Source: Microcoleus sp. Aus8_D2
GTDB lineage: Bacteria > Cyanobacteriota > Cyanobacteriia > Cyanobacteriales > Microcoleaceae
DNA: 41,768 nucleotides
Direction of reading: 5' to 3'
Assembly: GCF_036702665.1 (NCBI RefSeq)
Contig: NZ_JAUBUN010000017.1
Span: forward strand, 1-41,768
Under the pieces are notes generated by a model, which was given only the letters and a program-made list of their open reading frames with translations, had not been told where the DNA came from and did no database searches. This document shows positions 2,728 through 14,996 of this stretch, piece by piece (position 1 is the first letter of the stretch; each line of letters begins with the position of its first letter). The position numbers and the translations under genes are program-made.

Positions 2728-2880
2728 GAGTATAAACTCTTGTGGGGTGGGCTTCTAGCCCGCCCCAAAGGCATAACATCATATCACGCACCAATCCCCG
2801 CAATCCAATCCTGCACCGCCTCCAACAAATCCTCTGCATCCACCGCAAAACCTGTTAACGGCAATTCCAGCGGTGTGGCG

Positions 2881-3370
2881 CTAATCCAGATTAGTTACCA
2901 TTTACCAATGCTTTCAGCCATCCTATCCTTGATTTCTAGATACTTTCTAGTCATTTAACCTATTTACGTTATCCTAGTTGTTGAGATTGCTTAATTGTGG
3001 CTTGTCACTTTCTAGGCATAATCTAGACACCACACCCTCTAAAATCTAGCTTAGTATCTTGCACTTTAACTTTAACCCCTTAAATAAGGGGATAAATCAT
3101 AAACACTCCCAAAACCCCCATTTATAAAAAATTAAAATGACGTTTTGGGGTGAAAAACCCGGTTTTGATTTTAGGCCATAACACAAAGTACAAATATCGC
3201 TATGCTTGGCAGACTCTAGAGTAGTGATTTTCGACTTGGTGAGAGTAAAAATATGTAGGATAATTGATAATCTATTATTTAACTTTAACCCCTTAAATAA
3301 GGGGATAAACAATAAAAATGAGTCCCCCTACCCAAAGGACTCATTAGCATATTAACTTTACCTAACCTGA
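2881..3370 (-). repeat. Repeat-family copy B, inverted relative to copy A. It is interrupted by about 185 bp (3096-3277), and the segment TTTATCCCCTTATTTAAGGGGTTAAAGTT is duplicated on both sides of the interruption.
   Basis: 2881-3095 aligns to the reverse complement of 95-300 at about 98% identity. 3278-3370 aligns to the reverse complement of 28-127. The palindrome CCCCTTAAATAAGGGG occurs at 3068-3083 and 3287-3302. Confidence 0.75.
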
Positions 3371-3375
3371 CAAAC

Positions 3376-3606
3376 TTACTCTTTTCTAGAGATTTGTTGC
3401 CAGTGGCGAGGCATTGGTAAATCCCAGTCTAAAGTAATTTCATCTCCTATTTCCCTACCCAAAAAGAAGGGACTAAGCACTTTGTTGGCGTGAGCTTGCC
3501 ACAAAGAAAGTTGGCTACTGTCAATGTCTTCTTGCCACACAGAAGGTTCGTTACCGCCGGGTAAAAGTATCCACCTAATATACAAGTCAAGTCCTAAGTT
3601 GGTCAA
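3376..3606 (-). CDS. Hypothetical protein. Possibly the 3' continuation of 3616-4221 after a frameshift.
   Basis: 76-aa ORF immediately downstream on the same strand. Confidence 0.3.
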   Translation of the reverse strand: MTNLGLDLYIRWILLPGGNEPSVWQEDIDSSQLSLWQAHANKVLSPFFLGREIGDEITLDWDLPMPRHWQQISRKE

Positions 3607-3615
3607 GGTAGTTAC

Positions 3616-4221
3616 CTATCGCTTTCTGTGTCCTGCAATTGGACACCTGCTACGGGTATAAACAGGTTCCCAAGAAACTTTTAAGTTTTGAGATTTGCCT
3701 ACATAAATAACTTTTGGTTCTGTTTTGCTTACCATCACAAAGAACAAACCACGAGAAGGAGGTAAAAAATGGAGTGAAGAAAGAGGCAATATCGGTAACT
3801 GTAAAATACTTTGTGGGGTGATGTCAGTTACCATGTTTATTTGAGCTTTGTCGGAATTCCCTAAGTATTCCTCCATTACAGTCGCTTTTTTAAGAGCGAT
3901 ATGTGGACTCTCATTCGGTAACTTCGCTTTTCGCTCTGTTCGCTCTATCGATTCAGGAGGAGGAAACTCACCCTCATAATGCACTAGACGTTTCCATGTT
4001 TCAGTCATGGTTACATTGCCGAAACATTTTGCATAGGAATCTATATTTAGTTTCTTAGCAAGCTGTTTGTAGAACTCGAAACTCCCAGCACCCAAGTTAC
4101 CAAAAACAAAACCTGAGTTGAAACCTAGGCTTTTACGTGCCGAACAGTATTCTTCTCGCTCTTCTAACGCGGACGTTACGATTTGCGATCGCAAATCACT
4201 TGATAACGGTAAATCTGTCAT
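3616..4221 (-). CDS. Hypothetical protein (island cargo). The C-terminal stretch GLFFVMVSKTEPKVIYVGKSQNLK is faintly GIY-YIG-like.
   Basis: 201-aa ORF with no recognisable family. The ORF 3376-3606 follows after a 9-bp gap in another frame, so this may be a frameshifted single gene. Confidence 0.4.
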   Translation of the reverse strand: MTDLPLSSDLRSQIVTSALEEREEYCSARKSLGFNSGFVFGNLGAGSFEFYKQLAKKLNIDSYAKCFGNVTMTETWKRLVHYEGEFPPPESIERTERKAKLPNESPHIALKKATVMEEYLGNSDKAQINMVTDITPQSILQLPILPLSSLHFLPPSRGLFFVMVSKTEPKVIYVGKSQNLKVSWEPVYTRSRCPIAGHRKR

Positions 4222-4676
4222 AGTTATTCTGTTCCAATCGTTGGTTGTAAACGTTTGGGGAAGTCGTGGTTAGTGTGGTTCGTCAAAACCGCATTACCGC
4301 GCATCAATCTTCCTTAGTTACTCACGATTGCAGGTTTGCAGCCGCTTGTCAACGGTATAACCGTTAAGTTCTGTAAAGTTTTGTTACGGGTAATGGTACA
4401 GAAAAAATAAAAGTTCGTTATATAACCTTTGTTTGTAGCGTAAGTCGCTAATATGGTTTATTTATTATAGCTTACTTAATTAGACTAAAAGGTACAAAAA
4501 AGTTGAATAGGAGGGTTTTTTATTGGCTATTTTTATATTTACTATTTACACCCTGTTTTAGTCCATTTTAACGCTATACTGATTTTGTAAACCTATATGG
4601 TTTTGAAATATTTTGACATATACTGAAAACAGCCAGCGATTTAAGCGCAAAGTATTCTGAACAAGGAAGTGGCAGA

Positions 4677-4916
4677 ATGATTGTGAATTACGAGAATACA
4701 CCCGTCTCTATGCCCCATTATTGGGAACACATAGTAACATCTCATTACCTGACAAAGAATAGGTACGTCCCTGCTTATAAGCTAGAAGCGCTTAAGGATG
4801 GCGATAGCATAATTGATAGATGCCGTCGGAGATGGTGGAAAATTAAATTAGACGAACACAACCAACATTTGAAACCACAAGGTGCTATTATCCGTTTTGT
4901 TTACTGTAACGGCTAA
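4677..4916 (+). CDS. Hypothetical small protein (79 aa) in the AT-rich island
   Basis: Isolated ORF in AT-rich DNA with no recognisable motif. Confidence 0.25.
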   Translation: MIVNYENTPVSMPHYWEHIVTSHYLTKNRYVPAYKLEALKDGDSIIDRCRRRWWKIKLDEHNQHLKPQGAIIRFVYCNG

Positions 4917-5575
4917 AGCACTATTAAACCGTAAATCAAAGTAGGTCAATCTCAGTTGGTCTACTTTTTTGTGGGTAAATAAAGCGGATTTAGTAGTACA
5001 GGATTACGGAACTTTATAGGTTGGTAACATCGTTGTCAACATTAAACAGTGTTATTTAAGTGATGTACATATGTAAGATTTGTAAACATTTACGAGTATA
5101 GGGGAGTACAATAGATAAGTTTTATTAATATTAAAATTAGAGTAATTGTAAATCAATGTAACGGAAATATTGCATTAGAACTAACTAACTAGATAAAAAA
5201 CATGAACAGAGAGATACAAAAATAGTGGGTAGAAAGAGGTAGTAAAGAAAAATAAATCCCCCCCAGGGTTTTGTACCTTTCAAGCCTTAAAGGAGGCAAA
5301 AATGGCTGTTTCTGTGGCGATTAAGAGCATGAGTGATTATAAATTGCAAAAAATGAAGGGAAAGGATAGCGACTCACTTCATTAATAAAACTTATCTATT
5401 TAAATATAGGGGGGTTCAGTTTTGATTAGTAGCTGTAATATTTTTATTATTTATCCCCCCATATTGGGGGGGATAAAGTTATATATTTACTGATGATATG
5501 ACCTACAGGTTCACTCAGTAAGTAGGCACAAAAAAACCTACCGGGTTAGGGTAGGTAGGTATGTACTGGGTAGGG

Positions 5576-7027
5576 TTAGACTACTACTAACTCTGTTGAC
5601 TCATTAATACCTAAGTAATGTCTTAGAATCACATCCACACTGTTGCCACAACTGCTAGCTATGCGTAACAGAGCGTTGTTATTGTGGCTATTAGCTTGCG
5701 CGGTTAGCGTGATGTAAGTGTGACGGCAATGATAGGACGCTAAATAACCACTAATTTTGCCTTCACGAGCCAATTGTGAGACTATACCGGGATAGAAATA
5801 CGTTACTTCTTCCCCTGATTTGAGAGTTTGTTTTTTTACATAATCACGCCAAACTCTCCCTAGGGAAGAAGTATCTATATACCCCCCATTGGCATTTGAA
5901 AAAATTAAACCCTCTGTTTTGTCGCCTTTAATTTCTAACAACAAAGCTTTTAAACGTTCAAAATCTTCAAAATAAAACAAGCGGCTCTCGCCCGTCTTAG
6001 TGTTTTTAACCTTGCGAGTAGAAGCACCTAGTGACTTACTAATTTTGATAACATGACGTTCAAAATTAACGTCACGCCAAGTTAGTGCATAAACTTCGCT
6101 AGGGCGACAACCCGTTAAAAACAGAAATTCGATAAACGGTGCAAACATGATAGAACCTTTGCGAGTTCTATTGCTATCAGACTCATAAAACGCTTTGATG
6201 ATGATATCACGTTCATCCTTAGTAAAGGCACGCTTATCATTCTCTAAAGCTTTCTCATCCTCTACTTCATGCCATTCTACAATCTCACCATTAACTACTT
6301 TGTCAGCATACTTTTGCTGTGTTGTGACAACAGGTACGCTAAATTTGTTAGTAGCAAAAGGATTGTTAGTAGCCGAATTAACGATTAATCCTTTTGATTG
6401 GGCATACTCAAAGGCTTGATTTAACGCTCTCAAACTCAAAGTTTTGAGTTTGGATGTTATTGAATCAAGCGCGGTTTCAATACCCTGTTTGTCATTTAAA
6501 TGAACGGTAGCTAGCGGGTTGTCAGATAGTGTCAACTGACTACCCTTGTTTTGAAAAATTTTACCGTAAATTATGTTGCCATATTTTTTGTACGTTGTGT
6601 CAAAAGTAGTTTCTTCTATGGTTGTTTTTTTCCACAATAGATATGCTTCCCACATCGCACCTACGGTTATCTCAGGTACGGTTTGAGTCGTACCCGGCAA
6701 TTGAAGTACATCAGCTAACTTAGCATATTTGCCCCCTCCTAAGCCATATTTAGCAAGGGTAGGGTCAAACAGCTTTTCCCACTCTGGATGGTCTAAATCA
6801 GCCTCCATCGCAGCAGCAATTTGGCTAGCCCGCTTCCAATCCTCTGGGGTATCAGAGTAGCCGTATTTGCCTATTCCTAAGCACTTAGGCTTACCCTTGA
6901 GTGATTTACCGTCTAGTAGCTCCCACAGGGTGCTATGGCGCTTGGGGAAGCGCAAGGCGAGTGACCCTTTGTCAGAGTAAACAGATACATCACAAGCGGA
7001 CTGTGCCTTTTGAGATTGAGCTTTCAT
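5576..7027 (-). CDS. Tyrosine recombinase / phage-type integrase
   Basis: C-terminal catalytic signatures are present: LTGCRPSEV (Arg), HCRHTYITL (H-x-R-H box) and VILRHYLGI (Tyr). A ~480-aa protein with a long N-terminal arm/core-binding region. Confidence 0.88.
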   Translation of the reverse strand: MKAQSQKAQSACDVSVYSDKGSLALRFPKRHSTLWELLDGKSLKGKPKCLGIGKYGYSDTPEDWKRASQIAAAMEADLDHPEWEKLFDPTLAKYGLGGGKYAKLADVLQLPGTTQTVPEITVGAMWEAYLLWKKTTIEETTFDTTYKKYGNIIYGKIFQNKGSQLTLSDNPLATVHLNDKQGIETALDSITSKLKTLSLRALNQAFEYAQSKGLIVNSATNNPFATNKFSVPVVTTQQKYADKVVNGEIVEWHEVEDEKALENDKRAFTKDERDIIIKAFYESDSNRTRKGSIMFAPFIEFLFLTGCRPSEVYALTWRDVNFERHVIKISKSLGASTRKVKNTKTGESRLFYFEDFERLKALLLEIKGDKTEGLIFSNANGGYIDTSSLGRVWRDYVKKQTLKSGEEVTYFYPGIVSQLAREGKISGYLASYHCRHTYITLTAQANSHNNNALLRIASSCGNSVDVILRHYLGINESTELVVV

Positions 7028-7059
7028 GGTAGGTTCTCTCTGTGACTATTGGTTTGTCA

Positions 7060-7160
7060 AGGTTCTGGGTTTCTAGATACTTTCTAGATAATGACTAGAA
7101 TGTGCCTGGTATTTAACCCCTTATTTAAGGGGTTAAACCATAAAATCAGTATAACATGGT
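7060..7160 (-). repeat. Repeat-family copy C. It is abbreviated, in the same orientation as copy B, and lies immediately 3' of the integrase.
   Basis: TTTCTAGATACTTTCTAG...ATGACTAGAATGT...AACCCCTTATTTAAGGGGTTAAACCATAAAA matches the B and A motifs. Confidence 0.65.
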
Positions 7161-7170
7161 TTTCGCCTGC

Positions 7171-10100
7171 TTAATCGCTAATCCAGGCGATATGAATACC
7201 CATGTGAGAGTCGGCGAGTTTGCGGGTGAAAGACGAAAGCGCATTTTCGCACGGGCACGAGTGCAAGATTAAGGCGATGTGCGGTTTTTGCAGCCGGTGT
7301 TTGAGTTGGGGGATTAATCGCTTGAATTCCGGGGCGTTGCGGATGGCGGGGATGTCTGTATCTGCGGGGAAGATTGTTTGATATAGTTGGGTACAGAGTT
7401 CTTGGGCGATCGGGCTTATATCGGTTTCGCCTTCTAACGCGCGAATGTTGAGGGGTACGGGGAAGGTTTTATCTGTGGGTTTGAGTTGTTTTAGGAGTGT
7501 GGGGATATCTGGATTTTGTGGGTGGTTGTCCGGTATTGGGGAATTGGTGGGTTGAGTGTGCCATGCTTGATAAAATTCTGGGTAAGTCTTGCTTTGGGCA
7601 CAGTCAGAGATGACGAGGCAGCACTTGTGATAAAGAGTAAAGTCGTTTTTGTAGATTTCGGAAGTTAGGCAATCTTTCAAACCAGAGACTGCGATCGCGA
7701 AGTGTTTATCTTTCATGATTTCACCTAAGCTATCTGCCGCTATACTACGGATATGTCTATCACCTGAATTGCTGATTAACTCGACTAAAGCGGCGATCGC
7801 ATCCGGGTTGTTTTTGCATATTTGCCCTAGGCTTACAGTCGCTCTCCTCCGGGTATTTTTATCCTGAAAAGTACCGATTAACTCGACTAAAGCTGAGAGC
7901 GCAACTGAGTTATCTTTTTCGATTTTTCCTAAGATATTTAGGGCATTTCTCCAGGTATTGTCATCCTCAGAAGTACCAATAAGCTCGTCGCAATTATCTA
8001 AATTTGCGAGTATCAGAGAGTTGTTTGTTACTGATTTTGACAAGCTATATGCCAATTTAATCATCGTATTGTCATCTTCAGAAGTAGCACTCAGTTCATC
8101 AAAATTTACAAGTATAACTAAGTTATTTATGTCAATTTTTCCTAAGCTATTTGCCGCTGTCATCCGGGTATTTTGTTCGCCTGAATTGCGAATTAACTTG
8201 ACTAACCCGGAGATTGCAACTGGGTTATCTTCACCTATTTCTCCTAAGCTTTTTGCCGCTTGCTTCCAAGTATCTTCATCCTGAGAACTACGGATTAACT
8301 CGACTAAAGCTTCGATCGCAACAGGGTTAGATTTGCCTATTGTTCCTAAGCTAGCTGCCGCCTCCCTCCGGGTATTTTCATCCTGAGAATTACGGATTAA
8401 CTCGACGAAAGCTTCGATCGCAACTGGATTATCTTTGCTTATTTCCCCTAATATATTTGCCGCTATCCACCGGGTTTTTTCATTACCTGAATTGCGGATT
8501 GACTCAACTAAAGCTACGATCGCCCTTTTCCGATCCGTCTCCTTCAGTATATCCCATGAACTCTCTGCCAGTGGAGCGATAAATGTTTGCCACTCCTGCT
8601 TTTCCTCATCAAAATAACCAAACCCCCACTTAATAACCTGCGACACAATCTCATCAGCAAAACTGCAATCCTTAAACTCAGCAATCCCCGCAGCCGCGAG
8701 AAAATATGCCCGATCTCCATAAAATTTACCACACCCATCCTCAAACTCAACCAACGCCTTAATAAACGCTTCCTTCTCCTCCTTCCCAACCTCCTCACGG
8801 CCCAACCACAGCAAAATAACCTCCTTCCACTGCTTCTCAAAAATCCGATATCGAGCATCAGGATGCTGCGGATTCCCAGGAAAATGATTCAAGAAAAAAT
8901 GCCAATCCTCAGCCGCCAACGCCGCAAAATATTCCTGAAAAGTCGGATGATAAAAAGCATAAATCCCTTCCGCCGTCTCCGCATCCCTCGCCACCAAATT
9001 CAGCCAACCCAAGCGGCAAGCTATCTCAAACTGCGATGCACCCATCACCCGATATCCCACACTTTCTCGTAACTGAAACCGATCCGTTTCATTTAACATC
9101 CCAGCCAGAGCCAATTTCCCCAAAGCCGCATTCAAATCCTGCTGCTGACTCCAATTCAGGCGCGGTTCCTTCCACTGATACAAAGCAGTCACAAACCGCC
9201 GATAAAGCTTAGCCTTAGTATCCGGCAAATCCCCATCCAACGACTGCCAAGTACCGCACAGCAGCGAACATCTCAGCGGATTTTTTACTAAGTCTTGAAT
9301 TCGCTCTTTCCCCGATGCTGCTAATGCTTCCCGTAGCTGTTGGGAAAGCACCCCCCCAGCCCCCCTTGCTAAGGGGGGAGTAAGAGTTTCTTCTGTATTT
9401 TGGGTTGGGATGGAGGGAGGAAGAACCCCCCCAGCCCCCCTTGCTAAGGGGGGAGTAAGAGTGTTCCCTTCTCCTGTCGCCTGCGTTGATAAACCACGAG
9501 CAAAAGTATCCCCTTCTTCTCTTGTCCCCCCCCTTAGCAAGGGGGGGTTAGGGGGGGTTCCAAACCACTTATCGATAAACATTTCCACCTGTTCGGGATA
9601 GGAAAACTCCAGAGTACGATAAGTATCAAAAGTATCCAAGGCAGAGCCGATCGCATCCCAAACATTCTGCCGACAACTTAGCACAATCCGCGCCCTTTGA
9701 ACACAGCCGCCCGTTCTAACTTGTCGCTGAATTTCCGCCAAAGGATTCCCATCACCCGCAGCCATCTCATCCGCGCCATCCAACACCAACCAAACCCGCT
9801 CAGCATTAAACTGTGCTAAAAAATCATCTTTAATATCCGCCGTCGCCTCAGCTTTCCCAACCCTCTTAATTGCCGCCAGCAACCAAGTATCAAATAAATA
9901 CGATTCTAAATCTTTCCCCTGCAAATCCGCCAAAGCAACCCAAATAACAATCGCCTCGGAAATTTCCTCCGCCACCCAATTAGCAATCTGCCGCAACAGC
10001 GTAGTTTTCCCCGCCCCCGGTTCCCCAATAATTGCTAACCGCTTCCCATTGCTCTTCGGGCTACTTCCTCCCCGCAAAACTTGCTCCAGAAACTCCTTAT

Positions 10101-10992
10101 TTTCAAAGGTTTGAGTTACTTCTTTTTCCCGGTACAAATCCGAACCTTCCTCCGCCGCCAAATCCTCCCGGCGCTGAGTCACTTTGTGCCGTTCAACCAA
10201 TCCCAGCGGCACATAAACATCATCAATTTGACGATCGCCAAAAGTTAGCTGATTGCTACTGAGCCGCTGCTGTTCTTTCTCGTCTAAAATCTGCTGACAA
10301 ATAGCCCGCCAGTCAATCGGTTGGTAAACAATGCGGCTCTTTTGCACAATCTCCTCAAGCCAAGCATACATCTCTTGGGTTGTGGTATCAATTCGCGTCA
10401 AAGTTTGCCCGGTGAATATCTGAAAAACCTTTTCATTTTCCTTGATTTCTTGAGCAAAGTATGCAGCCACCAAGGCAAACAACTCTTGCTCTAACTTCGT
10501 TTTGTAATGTGCGACATCGCAATTTTCGAGGGCAACTTCCAGCAATTTTTGCTCAACTGCTGCTACCCGATTCTGCTTTAACTCATCTGTGGCAGTCAGC
10601 AGCAATTCTATCTCATCTAAACCCTCAATCGGAATCCCAGACGGGACTGTTTCTTTATTAACCTGTTCTAAATCTAATTTGAGCTTTTCGAGCTTTCGTT
10701 TCAACCAATCAAAATCGCGCCGCCTGTCTTGCAGCGAATAGCTAAAACTCTCTCGGTTAGCGCTATTTTTCGGATCGATTTCCTGCTTGCATTCTGAGGC
10801 GATTTGCTGCTGAGCTTTCAGGAAAGATGTTTTCAGCGCTTTTTCTAAATCGTGATTGACAATTTTACCGTTTCGCGATATCTTTTTAATGCCTGTCAAA
10901 CAGAGATGTTTTGCTGCATCATTAACTTGAGTTCCTAGTATGCCTTGCCAAGCGACTGTGAAAAGCAAGCCCAAGGTAATCGGATCTGACAT
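7171..10992 (-). CDS. STAND-class NACHT NTPase with C-terminal HEAT/PBS-lyase repeats and an uncharacterised ~300-aa N-terminal domain.
   Basis: Walker A is AIIGEPGAGKTTLL. The NACHT-type Walker B is VWLVLDGADEM. The C-terminus has many tandem HEAT-like repeats (…NPVAIEALVELIRNS.DE.TRR.AA.SLG.IG…). The start is placed at the internal ATG 10992 (MSDPITLG) with GGAG 9 nt upstream. The ORF-track extension to 11130 is encoded by the tandem repeat. Confidence 0.85.
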   Translation of the reverse strand: MSDPITLGLLFTVAWQGILGTQVNDAAKHLCLTGIKKISRNGKIVNHDLEKALKTSFLKAQQQIASECKQEIDPKNSANRESFSYSLQDRRRDFDWLKRKLEKLKLDLEQVNKETVPSGIPIEGLDEIELLLTATDELKQNRVAAVEQKLLEVALENCDVAHYKTKLEQELFALVAAYFAQEIKENEKVFQIFTGQTLTRIDTTTQEMYAWLEEIVQKSRIVYQPIDWRAICQQILDEKEQQRLSSNQLTFGDRQIDDVYVPLGLVERHKVTQRREDLAAEEGSDLYREKEVTQTFENKEFLEQVLRGGSSPKSNGKRLAIIGEPGAGKTTLLRQIANWVAEEISEAIVIWVALADLQGKDLESYLFDTWLLAAIKRVGKAEATADIKDDFLAQFNAERVWLVLDGADEMAAGDGNPLAEIQRQVRTGGCVQRARIVLSCRQNVWDAIGSALDTFDTYRTLEFSYPEQVEMFIDKWFGTPPNPPLLRGGTREEGDTFARGLSTQATGEGNTLTPPLARGAGGVLPPSIPTQNTEETLTPPLARGAGGVLSQQLREALAASGKERIQDLVKNPLRCSLLCGTWQSLDGDLPDTKAKLYRRFVTALYQWKEPRLNWSQQQDLNAALGKLALAGMLNETDRFQLRESVGYRVMGASQFEIACRLGWLNLVARDAETAEGIYAFYHPTFQEYFAALAAEDWHFFLNHFPGNPQHPDARYRIFEKQWKEVILLWLGREEVGKEEKEAFIKALVEFEDGCGKFYGDRAYFLAAAGIAEFKDCSFADEIVSQVIKWGFGYFDEEKQEWQTFIAPLAESSWDILKETDRKRAIVALVESIRNSGNEKTRWIAANILGEISKDNPVAIEAFVELIRNSQDENTRREAAASLGTIGKSNPVAIEALVELIRSSQDEDTWKQAAKSLGEIGEDNPVAISGLVKLIRNSGEQNTRMTAANSLGKIDINNLVILVNFDELSATSEDDNTMIKLAYSLSKSVTNNSLILANLDNCDELIGTSEDDNTWRNALNILGKIEKDNSVALSALVELIGTFQDKNTRRRATVSLGQICKNNPDAIAALVELISNSGDRHIRSIAADSLGEIMKDKHFAIAVSGLKDCLTSEIYKNDFTLYHKCCLVISDCAQSKTYPEFYQAWHTQPTNSPIPDNHPQNPDIPTLLKQLKPTDKTFPVPLNIRALEGETDISPIAQELCTQLYQTIFPADTDIPAIRNAPEFKRLIPQLKHRLQKPHIALILHSCPCENALSSFTRKLADSHMGIHIAWISD
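9348..9560. repeat. Intragenic palindromic repeat insertions in the NACHT gene. CCCCCC(AGCCCCCC)TTGCTAAGGGGGG occurs as two direct copies (9348-9386 and 9425-9462) plus one opposite-orientation copy (CCCCCCCCTTAGCAAGGGGGGG, 9527-9548).
   Basis: Read directly. They are translated in-frame as TPPLARGAGGVL (twice) and PPLLRGG, between the NACHT and HEAT modules. Confidence 0.8.
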
Positions 10993-11031
10993 TTGACGGT
11001 TCTCCTGATGCGCTGCTCGAAGCGGGTTAGT

Positions 11032-11360
11032 TTGATTGTAGGCGATCGACTTTAGTGGCGATCGGGCGAGTTGACAGGTGCGTCGCTTTGAGATTTTCGA
11101 TGTTTGGCTAAGGATTTTCTGTGGCGACACACCCGAATACTTGATTGTAGGCGATCGACTTTATTGGCGATCGGGCGAGTTCACAGGTGCGTCGCTTTGA
11201 GATTTTTCATGTTTGGCTAAGGATTTTTTGTGGCGACACACCCGAATACTTGATTGTAGGCGATCGACTTTATTGGCGATCGGGCGAGTTGACAGGTGCG
11301 GAGCTTTGAGATTTTCGATATTTAGTTAGGGATTCTTCGCAGGCGACACACCCTACGATT
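11032..11360. repeat. Tandem direct repeat of 3 x ~109 bp, each unit containing HIP1-like GGCGATCG motifs. It lies between the HTH regulator gene and the NACHT gene.
   Basis: Units start at 11032, 11141 and 11250 and are >90% identical (TTGATTGTAGGCGATCGACTTTA(G/T)TGGCGATCGGGCGAGTT(G/C)ACAGGTGCG...). Confidence 0.85.
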
Positions 11361-11465
11361 ACTACCGTGTCCGAATTTCGGGGCAATTGTTGATCCGATT
11401 TAAAACTGCTATAATTTCGACAAAAAGGTCGATCGCAAAAACAAAACTCGATCGCCAAAAAGCAC

Positions 11466-11684
11466 CTACTTTTCCATGATGATCACAAAATCCTCAATCA
11501 GCACATCAAAGGTGCGGGCCAACTTGTACACTGCCGCAAAGTCAACCATCGCCATCCCCTGAGAGCGGGCATAATTGCTAATCGTACTGTAGCCGACGCC
11601 CGATCGCTCCGCAACCTCCTTCAGCGTCCATCCCTTCTCGGCCGCCAACTCTCGAACCCGCAACCTGACTAAACCTTTACTCAT
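11466..11684 (-). CDS. XRE/Cro-C1-family helix-turn-helix transcriptional regulator (72 aa)
   Basis: Canonical HTH_XRE segment LRELAAEKGWTLKEVAERSGVGYSTISNYARS. Confidence 0.85.
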   Translation of the reverse strand: MSKGLVRLRVRELAAEKGWTLKEVAERSGVGYSTISNYARSQGMAMVDFAAVYKLARTFDVLIEDFVIIMEK

Positions 11685-11849
11685 ATAAACTATTTACAAA
11701 ATTTTGGATTTAGTATAATATAGCAAAAAGCGATCGCCCCCGGTCAGCGAAACTAAAGGCGATCGCCTGTTAAAATTAATTCTGACAGATAATTTCAGTC
11801 GGTCGCACCTAGCAGATAGATTGAGCTACCACCACCAGATGCAACTACA

Positions 11850-12320
11850 ATGATATCAGAGAATCAGTTAAGGTCGTCAGCGATCGGCGCCTCAAAAATT
11901 ATTCACAAATCGTCAATAGTCAATCCGCGATCGAGATTTGTCACCGAAGAAACAGTAGCACTTTTGTTCAACATCACGCCCGACCAAATTTACCGAATCG
12001 AATGCTGTCACAACATGGTGTACGTACACGCCAAAGGCCTGAGTAGATTTGTCAGCTACGCCGATTTCCCCCCAATCTTAGAAGTAAAACCAGCCTGCGC
12101 TCAAGATTTTCTCGGCTGGTACAAACGCTGGAAACGCACCCAAGCACCAGAATTTTGGACTAAATTCTATACGTACAACTTCAAAGCCGCTGTTTCAGTT
12201 GACAGCTTGCTGGAATGGGGTACATTAGTCGCTACAGTTAAATCGGTAATTTCTGCCTCAGCACTGCAACAACTACGAGATGTTTACGCTCAAGAAAAAA
12301 CCTTAATGGAAAGTTTCTAA
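11850..12320 (+). CDS. Hypothetical protein (156 aa), divergent from the HTH gene
   Basis: ORF with no recognisable family. The start may lie at an internal Met. Confidence 0.35.
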   Translation: MISENQLRSSAIGASKIIHKSSIVNPRSRFVTEETVALLFNITPDQIYRIECCHNMVYVHAKGLSRFVSYADFPPILEVKPACAQDFLGWYKRWKRTQAPEFWTKFYTYNFKAAVSVDSLLEWGTLVATVKSVISASALQQLRDVYAQEKTLMESF

Positions 12321-13807: not shown

Positions 13808-13843
13808 AGAAATCTCCTCAAAGTTAGTAAATAAATCAGGTAG

Positions 13844-13912
13844 GAATGGGAATTGGGAATCGGGAATTGGGAATTGGGAATTGGGAATTGGGAATTGGGA
13901 ATTGGGAATTGG
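13844..13912. repeat. Heptanucleotide tandem repeat (GGGAATT)n of about 10 units (one GGGAATC variant), STRR-like. It sits 40-105 nt upstream of the ugd start.
   Basis: Read directly. Confidence 0.9.
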
Positions 13913-13972: not shown

Positions 13973-14027
13973 CTCTTCTGCAGCAGCAGGGGGCAACCAC
14001 TCTTCTGCAGCAGCAGGGGGCAACCAC
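13973..14027. repeat. Tandem duplication (2 x 27-28 bp) CTCTTCTGCAGCAGCAGGGGGCAACCAC in the uxs-ugd intergenic region
   Basis: Read directly. Confidence 0.85.
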
Positions 14028-14057: not shown

Positions 14058-14996
14058 CTACTTTTGGTTTCCCTCGATACGATCGCGAAAATCTTTCACA
14101 GTCAACTCTAAACCTTGATCCAGCGGAATAGTTGGCTCCCACCCCAACCAACTTTTAGCACGAGTAATATCCGGTTGTCGCTGTTTTGGATCGTCTTGTG
14201 GCAGCGGTTTGAAGATGATTTCCGCCCCAGGATTAATCATGTTTTGAATTTTCTGGGCCAGTTCCAAGATAGTGTATTCGCCGGGATTCCCCAAATTCAT
14301 CGGCCCGATTTCGTCGCTATTCATCAAGCGCATAAATCCTTCCACCAAATCAGAAACGTAGCAAAAACTCCGTGTTTGGGAACCATCGCCATACACAGTC
14401 AGCGGTTGATTGCGCAAAGCTTGAACAATAAAATTGCTGACAACTCGGCCATCATTTTCTAACATTCGCGGGCCGTAGGTATTAAAAATTCGTACAACTC
14501 GAATGTCTACCCCATTTTGGCGGTGGTAGTCAAAAGATAGGGTTTCAGCTACTCGCTTCCCCTCGTCGTAACAGCTCCGAATACCGATACAATTAACGTT
14601 GCCGCGATAGTCTTCTGTTTGGGGATGGACATCCGGATCGCCGTAAACTTCTGATGTGGAAGCCAGAAAAAATCTTGCTTTTACCCGTTTCGCCAATCCC
14701 AGCATATTTAGTGTCCCGATGACATTCGTTTTGATTGTCTTGACGGGGTTGAACTGATAGTGTACTGGCGAAGCCGGACAAGCCAGATGGTAAATCTGAT
14801 CTACCTCTAACCGAATGGGTTCCGTGATGTCGTGGCGGATCAGCTCAAAATAGGGGTTGTCCAGCCATTTGAGGATATTGCGCTTAGTCCCGGTGTAAAA
14901 GTTATCCAGGCAGACTACCTCGTGTCCTTGGGCCATTAAGCGATCGATCAGATGGGAACCGATGAAACCCGCACCGCCTGTGACTAAAATTCTCAT
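14058..14996 (-). CDS. uxs: UDP-glucuronate decarboxylase (UDP-xylose synthase, SDR family)
   Basis: [41 protein letters not shown]... is the characteristic UXS N-terminus. The catalytic YDEGKR (YxxxK) is present. Confidence 0.9.

Follow-up and report, generated by a model that had tools for sequence, protein, structure and literature searches.

Does a small regulator gene directly upstream of a large NACHT gene, with tandem repeats between the two and an integrase at the far end, amount to one antiphage module? The question is raised by a 41,768-nucleotide contig of the cyanobacterium Microcoleus sp. Aus8_D2 (NZ_JAUBUN010000017.1), which we analysed as a whole and call the window. An earlier note, made from the letters of the DNA alone, had read part of this contig as an NLR-like defence gene that is controlled by an XRE-family helix-turn-helix (HTH) regulator through operators in three 109-bp repeats, and that sits on an integrase-side defence island. 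We lean, with slightly better than even confidence, towards a different answer, in which the region consists of four separate things and not one module: an NLR-like gene, a cassette of the XRE gene and a divergent open reading frame (ORF) that we call ORF156, a duplication of the NLR-like gene's leader, and an integrase insertion. The window is cyanobacterial: the HIP1 octamer GCGATCGC occurs in it 29 times, and all close homologs are from Microcoleus or Tychonema.

The large protein is a genuine and fairly ordinary cyanobacterial NLR-type (NACHT-HEAT) immune-receptor-like protein. Its NACHT, HEAT_2, NCC-H and NCAB1 domains all exceed the Pfam cutoffs, with 46.6 bits against a cutoff of 26.7 for NACHT (PF05729, aa 319-477) and 112 bits over four stretches for HEAT_2. 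The Walker A sequence GEPGAGKTT (aa 323-331) fits GxxxxGK[ST], and VWLVLDGADEM (aa 400-410), with LVLDGADEM at aa 402-410 and Walker B LDGADE at aa 403-408, carries the D[GAS]hDE signature of the NACHT clade of STAND NTPases. The NACHT core, the C-terminal HEAT repeat region and the overall reading as an NLR-like NACHT STAND NTPase with a repeat sensor, all claimed in the earlier note, are therefore borne out by the Pfam domains and by the purifying selection described below; NCC-H and NCAB1 had been overlooked. The HEAT region contains a 102-bp tandem periodicity at 8135-8523. The minus-strand ORF as listed spans 7171-11130, and its GTG start at 11130 is mere read-through of a repeat unit. 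The true start is most likely the ATG at 10992, because AGGAGA precedes it and because this start and the adjoining leader are kept in five related loci.

Selection was measured as the ratio of nonsynonymous to synonymous substitution rates (dN/dS) against the intact 1328-aa ortholog of Microcoleus sp. CAWBG640 (WP_341737722.1, 75% identity). The ratio is 0.13 for the N-terminal domain, 0.15 for the nucleotide-binding domain (NBD), 0.14 for the HD/WH part, 0.24 for the C-terminal domains and 0.65 for the HEAT region, which is only 50% identical. Residues 561-800, at the position of a would-be winged-helix extension of the NTPase module, are likewise conserved (0.14). Purifying selection acts on the N-terminal domain, the NTPase and the C-terminal parts, whereas the HEAT region evolves fast; a receptor would be expected to show just this combination of a conserved signalling core and rapidly changing repeats. 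Distant paralogs with the same N-terminal domain (loci L006 and L007) adjoin PIN toxins, a ThiF/E2 pair and a pPIWI_RE system.

The N-terminal domain had been put forward as a probable effector without a recognisable motif. The lack of a motif is confirmed by the lack of any Pfam, PADLOC, NCBIfam or PHROG assignment for the region; moreover, no Pfam model, including those of the NACHT N-terminal helical families, covers the domain in 21 members (the protein itself and 20 others). A word-indexed homology search with residues 1-310 returned only 25 proteins, all but one weak match from Microcoleus, Tychonema or metagenome contigs. A profile scan of 1.84 billion cluster representatives retrieved 203 at E <= 1e-3 and 112 at E <= 1e-10, giving a family of about 200 clusters at 50% identity, and its named members are cyanobacterial (Microcoleus, Aerosakkonemataceae, Xenococcaceae). 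The domain, of about 220 aa, is almost always N-terminal and is then followed by NACHT, NB-ARC, AAA_35, nSTAND, TPR or DUF1822. We rejected two candidate identities. TRADD-N was considered on account of matches to PF20694 in 12 of 66 members, and in these TRADD-like_N comes only after the N-terminal domain, downstream of it (P0053, for instance, has it at aa 302-363). An HTH like that of extracytoplasmic function (ECF) sigma factors was considered on account of a weak PHROG sigma match (E = 0.0098) and of the DUF1822 fusions; there was no Pfam sigma match and no fold match.

AlphaFold2, given an alignment of 67 diverse family members, predicts an all-alpha domain of nine helices (pLDDT 82, pTM 0.70); close homologs alone gave pLDDT 38. 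Foldseek comparison of this model with the PDB gave a best E of 0.5 and no fold match, its comparison with viral models gave nothing, and the family profile retrieved nothing relevant from PDB sequences. Thus the Foldseek and PDB comparisons indicate no fold of a nuclease, a TIR domain, a protease or a known pore toxin; these are the kinds (nuclease, TIR, pore or protease-like) that had been suggested for a check by HHpred, AlphaFold and Foldseek.

The first helix is distinctive. Across the family, the roughly 18 residues before a conserved GNRAD sequence are hydrophobic or small and almost uncharged (mean Kyte-Doolittle 1.75), and 50 of 71 members have D or E at position 2 or 3 (expected, 26%), with the consensus M-E-P-I-T. 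The window protein begins MSDPITLGLLFTVAW; its own first helix (aa 4-20) is hydrophobic, starts MSDPIT and has GTQVND at the family's G-N-R-A-D position. Its aa 5-19 form the most hydrophobic 15-mer of all 1273 residues, at a value short of that usually required for a constitutive transmembrane segment. The same first-helix signature has been described in Bell, Hell/HeLo, MLKL and plant CC domains (bioRxiv 10.1101/2020.01.06.895854). The later name "MEPIS" was given to this motif, which is common to Bab, Avs2 and bNACHT02/11/23; mutation of helix 1 abolishes the abortive-infection activity of Bab, mutations in the motif region affect the antiphage activity of Avs2, and it was proposed that helix 1 leaves a sheath of helices and enters the membrane (bioRxiv 10.1101/2024.11.07.622273). 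The same authors point out that homology between subfamilies can be confined to the first helix (bioRxiv 10.1101/2024.11.07.622273), and beyond that helix we detected no sequence or fold homology of the N-terminal domain to Bell, Bab, HeLo, MLKL or CC.

Because the first helix shows a MEPIS-type signature, our best guess is that the N-terminal domain would be a membrane-targeting effector, a guess taken from the motif and not from demonstrated homology. In such a protein, the HEAT solenoid would bind a trigger, for which a protein of phage or other non-self origin is the most plausible candidate, and NTP-dependent oligomerisation of the NACHT module would gather the N-terminal domains. The acidic-capped hydrophobic first helix, which we liken to the MEPIS helix of Bell, HeLo, Bab, Avs2 and some bNACHT proteins, would then leave its helical sheath, insert in the membrane and kill the cell. 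The effector role claimed for the N-terminus thus keeps its position in the protein and the cell-death-domain features of the first helix, and gains no fold match. A broader proposal is speculative and, to us, rather doubtful: the family may be an unmodelled, mainly cyanobacterial family of membrane-targeting cell-death executors, related to Bell/HeLo but enlarged and with nothing kept in common except the MEPIS-type first helix, which acts as direct effector of NACHT, NB-ARC and AAA_35 STANDs and of TRADD-N proteins, and the copy number of the 109-bp unit may set the strain-specific expression of a potentially lethal gene.

The small XRE-family gene lies upstream of the NACHT gene on the same strand, as had been described. 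The order ORF156 (on the opposite strand)-XRE-NACHT-ppk recurs in four related assemblies, namely a metagenome contig (L001), Microcoleus AT3-A2 (L002), Tychonema LEGE 07199 (L003) and Microcoleus CAWBG640 (L004), and XRE and ORF156 are both kept in all four of these orthologous loci. The epimerase-ugd flank upstream is common to L001, L002 and L003; CAWBG640 has a MotA/ExbB gene there. For the Microcoleus/Tychonema lineage, possession of the NACHT gene at this site is the ancestral state. The adjacency of XRE and NACHT is orthologous synteny, and therefore no proof of a functional link. ORF156 has many paralogs in Microcoleus and Tychonema, and at three paralogous sites (L013, L015/L016 and L017) an XRE gene, whose protein is 64-68% identical to that of the window, lies divergently beside an ORF156 paralog with no NACHT gene nearby. 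Conversely, no upstream XRE gene was found at the distant loci L005, L006, L007 and L018, which carry homologs of the N-terminal domain and NACHT. Because the pair occurs without NACHT and distant NACHT homologs occur without XRE, the conserved two-gene unit is XRE plus ORF156, and the XRE gene beside NACHT is therefore a local accident of synteny. A dedicated NACHT regulator, as the earlier note had envisaged, does not fit this distribution; judged from gene order, XRE most likely regulates the ORF156 pair. The cassette occupies 11466-12320 in the window, 5051-6471 in L013, 5640-6471 in L015 and 5659-6483 in L017. One of the paralogous sites has three tandem XRE genes, and ORF156 itself has the conserved motifs CCH and WYKRWK.

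The 109-bp repeats between the two genes are real (period 109, 2.9-3 copies, 91% matches overall, far beyond chance); measured against the reference copy, their identities are 100%, 95% and 77%. Within every unit, an inverted repeat of 10-12 bp (GGTGTGTCGC / GCGACGCACC) folds into a hairpin with a long loop (z = -2.9); there are also two HIP1-like CGATCGCC sites, and a -10-like TACAAT stands at the unit's 3' end. TACAAT or TATCAT stands roughly 40-50 nt before the ATG in the window, in L001-L004 and in L018. A promoter scan of the repeats showed no site of the sigma-70 type, Rfam had no match for the unit or for anything else in the window, and the window holds no other copy. Between strains the copy number ranges from about 0 to 3. 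The Tychonema locus has a single copy homologous to the unit just upstream of the NACHT start, L001 and L002 have only its 3' part in a 162-bp spacer, and L004 has essentially no unit in a spacer of 79 bp. About two units are present in L018, a Microcoleus NACHT homolog in another genomic context that lacks XRE and ORF156, together with the unit-to-unit junction of the window and a perfect 50-bp internal duplication (1907-2007). With copy numbers this variable, and with an array in L018 in the absence of XRE, the operator array of the earlier note gives way to a duplication, variable in copy number, of the leader that belongs to the NACHT gene itself. The array possibly multiplies a promoter element, and copy number may alter NACHT expression since each unit holds the -10-like TACAAT.

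The 109-bp unit was also considered as a dispersed repeat and rejected as such, as an exact search of 185,579 species genomes returned the Tychonema ortholog and three matches consistent with chance. The 50-bp duplication of L018 is bounded by the same inverted repeat as the 109-bp unit. In the Tychonema XRE-NACHT spacer, an inverted repeat resembling a miniature inverted-repeat transposable element (…GTAAGACACAATTAATTACACA… / …TGTGTAATTAATTGTGTC…; L003 9620-9720) accounts for the spacer length of 582 bp.

The integrase noted beside the NACHT gene exists, and the element to which it belongs entered the gene itself. The 11-bp sequence CGCTAATCCAG has exactly two matches in the window against 0.02 expected, one at each junction, and the att site at the end of the NACHT gene reads CTGGATTA[C/G]CG. 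Homology to relatives reaches position 7174 and resumes at 2889, the element is missing from L001, L002 and L004, and the NACHT gene here ends in …HIAWISD and a stop codon two bases inside the inserted DNA. The integrase is at the NACHT-proximal end of the element and the other cargo consists of small ORFs only; the NACHT gene lies outside the repeat-bounded segment, as its target. No tRNA gene was found in the window as an integration target, and the element had no match among plasmid records. The 4.3-kb element is a strain-specific insertion that clipped NCAB1 by 29 codons, and this NACHT copy may be impaired by it. Because the element is inserted in the NACHT gene and is missing from L001, L002 and L004, the islet does not mark a defence island; the XRE-NACHT-ppk order in four assemblies that lack an integrase there and the absence of a PADLOC family likewise speak against the defence-island position claimed before. 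Among the cargo ORFs, that of 201 aa at 3616-4221, for instance, had no Pfam or PHROG match.

A further insertion, which had been overlooked, lies in frame in a loop of the NACHT module. Its mini-elements have the palindrome CCCCCC-TTAGCAA-GGGGGG in three copies, and its dN/dS against the CAWBG640 ortholog is 1.33. The distant homolog P0025 lacks it. The site appears to be a clade-wide insertion hotspot. Copies of the palindrome also occur in L002 (7337-7372 and 8677-8704) and in L001 (11291-11415); the insert site carries a DDE_Tnp_1 insertion sequence (IS) in Microcoleus AT3-A2, and the ORF is broken there in L001. The features of the region are collected in Table 1.

Table 1. Features of the NACHT locus and its surroundings, in window coordinates.
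Feature	Position	Strand	Remarks
Displaced remnant of the NACHT gene	2784..2889	-	original last 29 codons (…TPLELPLTGFAVDAEDLLEAVQDWIAGIGA, stop); beside ppk; matches the 3' end of the gene in L001 at 91% identity
11-bp direct repeat CGCTAATCCAG	2879..2889		att core, ppk-side junction
Integrative element, about 4.3 kb	2890..7175		inserted into the NACHT 3' end; tyrosine integrase and small ORFs
Tyrosine integrase	5576-7027	-	Phage_integrase 1e-8; PHROG integrase 2e-27
11-bp direct repeat CGCTAATCCAG	7176..7186		att core, NACHT-side junction
NLR-like STAND gene	7171..10992	-	1273 aa and stop; C-terminus short by 29 codons; order: N-terminal helical domain, NACHT, HEAT repeats, NCC-H, NCAB1
NCC-H and NCAB1	7174..7644	-	aa 1117-1145 and aa 1173-1273; C-terminal NACHT-associated domains
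HEAT-repeat region	7693..8592	-	about aa 801-1100; putative sensor; fast-evolving
In-frame insert	9313..9561	-	about aa 478-560, ~80 aa; three G/C-rich palindromic mini-elements; neutral evolution
NACHT NTPase core	9562..10038	-	aa 319-477; Walker A GEPGAGKTT, Walker B LDGADE
N-terminal all-alpha domain	10318..10992	-	aa 1-225; no Pfam model
Three tandem copies of 109-bp unit	11032..11358	-	in the NACHT 5' leader
XRE-family HTH gene	11466..11684	-	72 aa; HTH_3 E = 1.8e-9
ORF156	11850..12320	+	conserved hypothetical, divergent from XRE; multi-copy family in Microcoleus and Tychonema

Several observations weigh against the picture of an immune-type receptor with neighbours of separate origin, and we take them up together with the explanations to which they belong. 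The stretch between XRE and NACHT showed no intrinsic terminator, so that co-transcription or XRE control is possible, and a 17-nt motif (ACTAAAGnCGATCGCCT), mostly HIP1, is common to the XRE upstream region and each repeat unit. Add to this the position of XRE directly upstream on the same strand, in the window and in four related loci, and the weak PADLOC matches of the XRE protein to capH (E = 2e-4) and mad1, and one arrives at a single regulator-controlled antiphage module in which XRE acts on NACHT through the three 109-bp operators, on an integrase-side defence island. We regard this as highly improbable. The loci at which XRE adjoins NACHT are all orthologs of one another, each upstream of ppk, and the adjacency is therefore not independent evidence; XRE co-varies with ORF156, with which it stands at three other sites in the absence of NACHT, and homologs of the N-terminal domain and NACHT stand elsewhere without XRE. 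The repeat varies from about 0 to 3 copies and occurs in L018 without the supposed regulator, and the integrase element is inside the NACHT gene rather than beside it and is missing from relatives. A different doubt concerns the copy in this strain, which lost 29 C-terminal residues, carries an 80-aa insert and may not function. An inactivated relic is a possibility that we hold only tentatively. It would agree with a C-terminal truncation caused by the integrase element, with an NCAB1 match that ends at profile position 113 of 140, with the neutral evolution of the insert, and with several independent disruptions in relatives at the same palindromic site; broken copies are frequent among the relatives, the L001 gene being split into three ORFs and that of L002 being IS-interrupted at the palindromic insert. 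It agrees less well with an ORF of 3822 nt that is otherwise uninterrupted and with the intact CAWBG640 ortholog, which has the insert too, in frame; the purifying selection holds for the whole branch and cannot date the insertion.

The assignment to immunity meets resistance of its own. PADLOC, which the earlier note had named with DefenseFinder as a check, was run and found no known defence family, the best matches being P-loop-only at E >= 1e-4. No NCBIfam defence model matched (EruA reached 25 bits against a cutoff of 1000), and the neighbours ugd, epimerase and ppk are housekeeping genes. A STAND ATPase of normal physiology, serving for example filament development, programmed cell death or kin recognition and not the sensing of phage, would account for the missing defence-family match and for the stable syntenic position among housekeeping genes in Microcoleus and Tychonema. 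It would also suit the fusions of the N-terminal domain family to DUF1822 and TRADD-N, for which a link to transcriptional outputs of the ECF-sigma type has been described (PMC8195603). However, frequent disruption in relatives is unexpected for a core function, a fast-evolving repeat sensor is typical of immune receptors, and the paralogs at L006 and L007 are in defence-like neighbourhoods, and we think this explanation quite improbable. As the outcome that would speak against defence, the earlier note had named a housekeeping N-terminal domain in syntenic orthologs. Half of this holds, namely the synteny; the N-terminal domain is no housekeeping domain. The proposed pore helix, finally, has two findings against it: a few members carry the domain internally, after a protein-kinase or trypsin domain, and residues 1-40 of the model reach only pLDDT 50-63, which leaves the "sheathed helix" a putative feature. 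The members with an internal domain belong with the idea of a non-toxic adaptor, effector-associated or Death-like, which after NACHT oligomerisation would recruit a separate effector with the same domain. The domain is part of many different architectures, some of them short proteins that have no NTPase, and it adjoins TRADD-like_N, a known adaptor; most effector-associated domains (EADs) are small helical domains (PMC8195603). Yet a hidden Markov model of the family, run on six-frame ORFs of the 41.8-kb window and 18 loci, found one copy per locus and no second, the domain of ~220 aa is much larger than EAD or Death-like adaptors, its conserved hydrophobic, acidic-capped first helix is no adaptor feature, and many of the short members may be contig-truncated. 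An adaptor is thus unlikely in our judgement.

Some observations concern the flanks. The epimerase/dehydratase upstream of ugd in Tychonema LEGE 07199 (L003 4638-6572) has 644 aa and a LAGLIDADG_3 match, against 312 aa for its window homolog (14058-14996); the enlargement is probably an intein or a homing-endonuclease insertion. In the window, a GGAATTG heptamer (ten copies) and a 27-bp unit (two copies), at 13843-13912 and 13973-14027, sit just upstream of the conserved ugd start and in the ugd-epimerase spacer, and the repeats inflate the apparent ugd ORF to 501 aa, compared with 462 aa in relatives. About 8 kb upstream of the orthologous locus, L001 carries a CyanoTRADDas_TM gene and an AAA_16 protein (1115-2667), a pair of the conflict-system type.

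Bacterial NLR-like proteins are already an established class, and the gene itself adds little to it. What the locus offers is a delimited N-terminal domain family of ~200 clusters in the effector position of several STAND clades; if this domain is membrane-active, a near-universal cell-death module would be extended to a new and larger fold. The locus also documents the attrition of an NLR gene by mobile elements, with an integrase at the 3' end and palindromes and an IS at the NACHT loop. It further advises caution, because the XRE gene belongs to a different two-gene cassette: a regulator and a defence gene cannot be inferred from adjacency alone.

Parts of the region resemble known systems. 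The insertion is like small tyrosine-integrase elements in having the integrase at one end, 11-bp direct repeats, a length of 4.3 kb and an empty site in relatives; it differs in that it targets the 3' end of a protein-coding NLR gene instead of a tRNA and has a tiny cargo without a defence gene. The small XRE gene, upstream on the same strand and with its weak capH match (E = 2e-4), recalls HTH-regulated operons of the CapH/CapP type, whereas its partner is the divergent ORF156 and there is no conserved operator array. With Bell/Babybell, HeLo/Hell, the MLKL 4HB and plant CC domains, the N-terminal domain shares a short hydrophobic helix, an acidic position 2-3 and an all-helical domain before the nucleotide-binding oligomerisation domain (NOD); it differs from the Bell/HeLo group in its size (about 220 aa versus about 80-110 aa), in having no amyloid (BASS) motif or partner gene, and in a membrane activity that is here only predicted. 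The protein as a whole is like bNACHT proteins (Kibby et al., bioRxiv 10.1101/2022.07.19.500537) and the cyanobacterial conflict STANDs (Kaur et al., eLife 2021, PMC8195603). Unlike these, it has no PADLOC or NCBIfam antiphage match, no Pfam N-terminal domain, and housekeeping synteny in place of a defence island. Like them, it has the tripartite layout of an N-terminal domain in the effector position, a NACHT module with D[GAS]hDE and a C-terminal repeat sensor; HEAT, NCC-H and NCAB1 as defined in that work are all present, and the host is a multicellular cyanobacterium from a group rich in NACHT paralogs.

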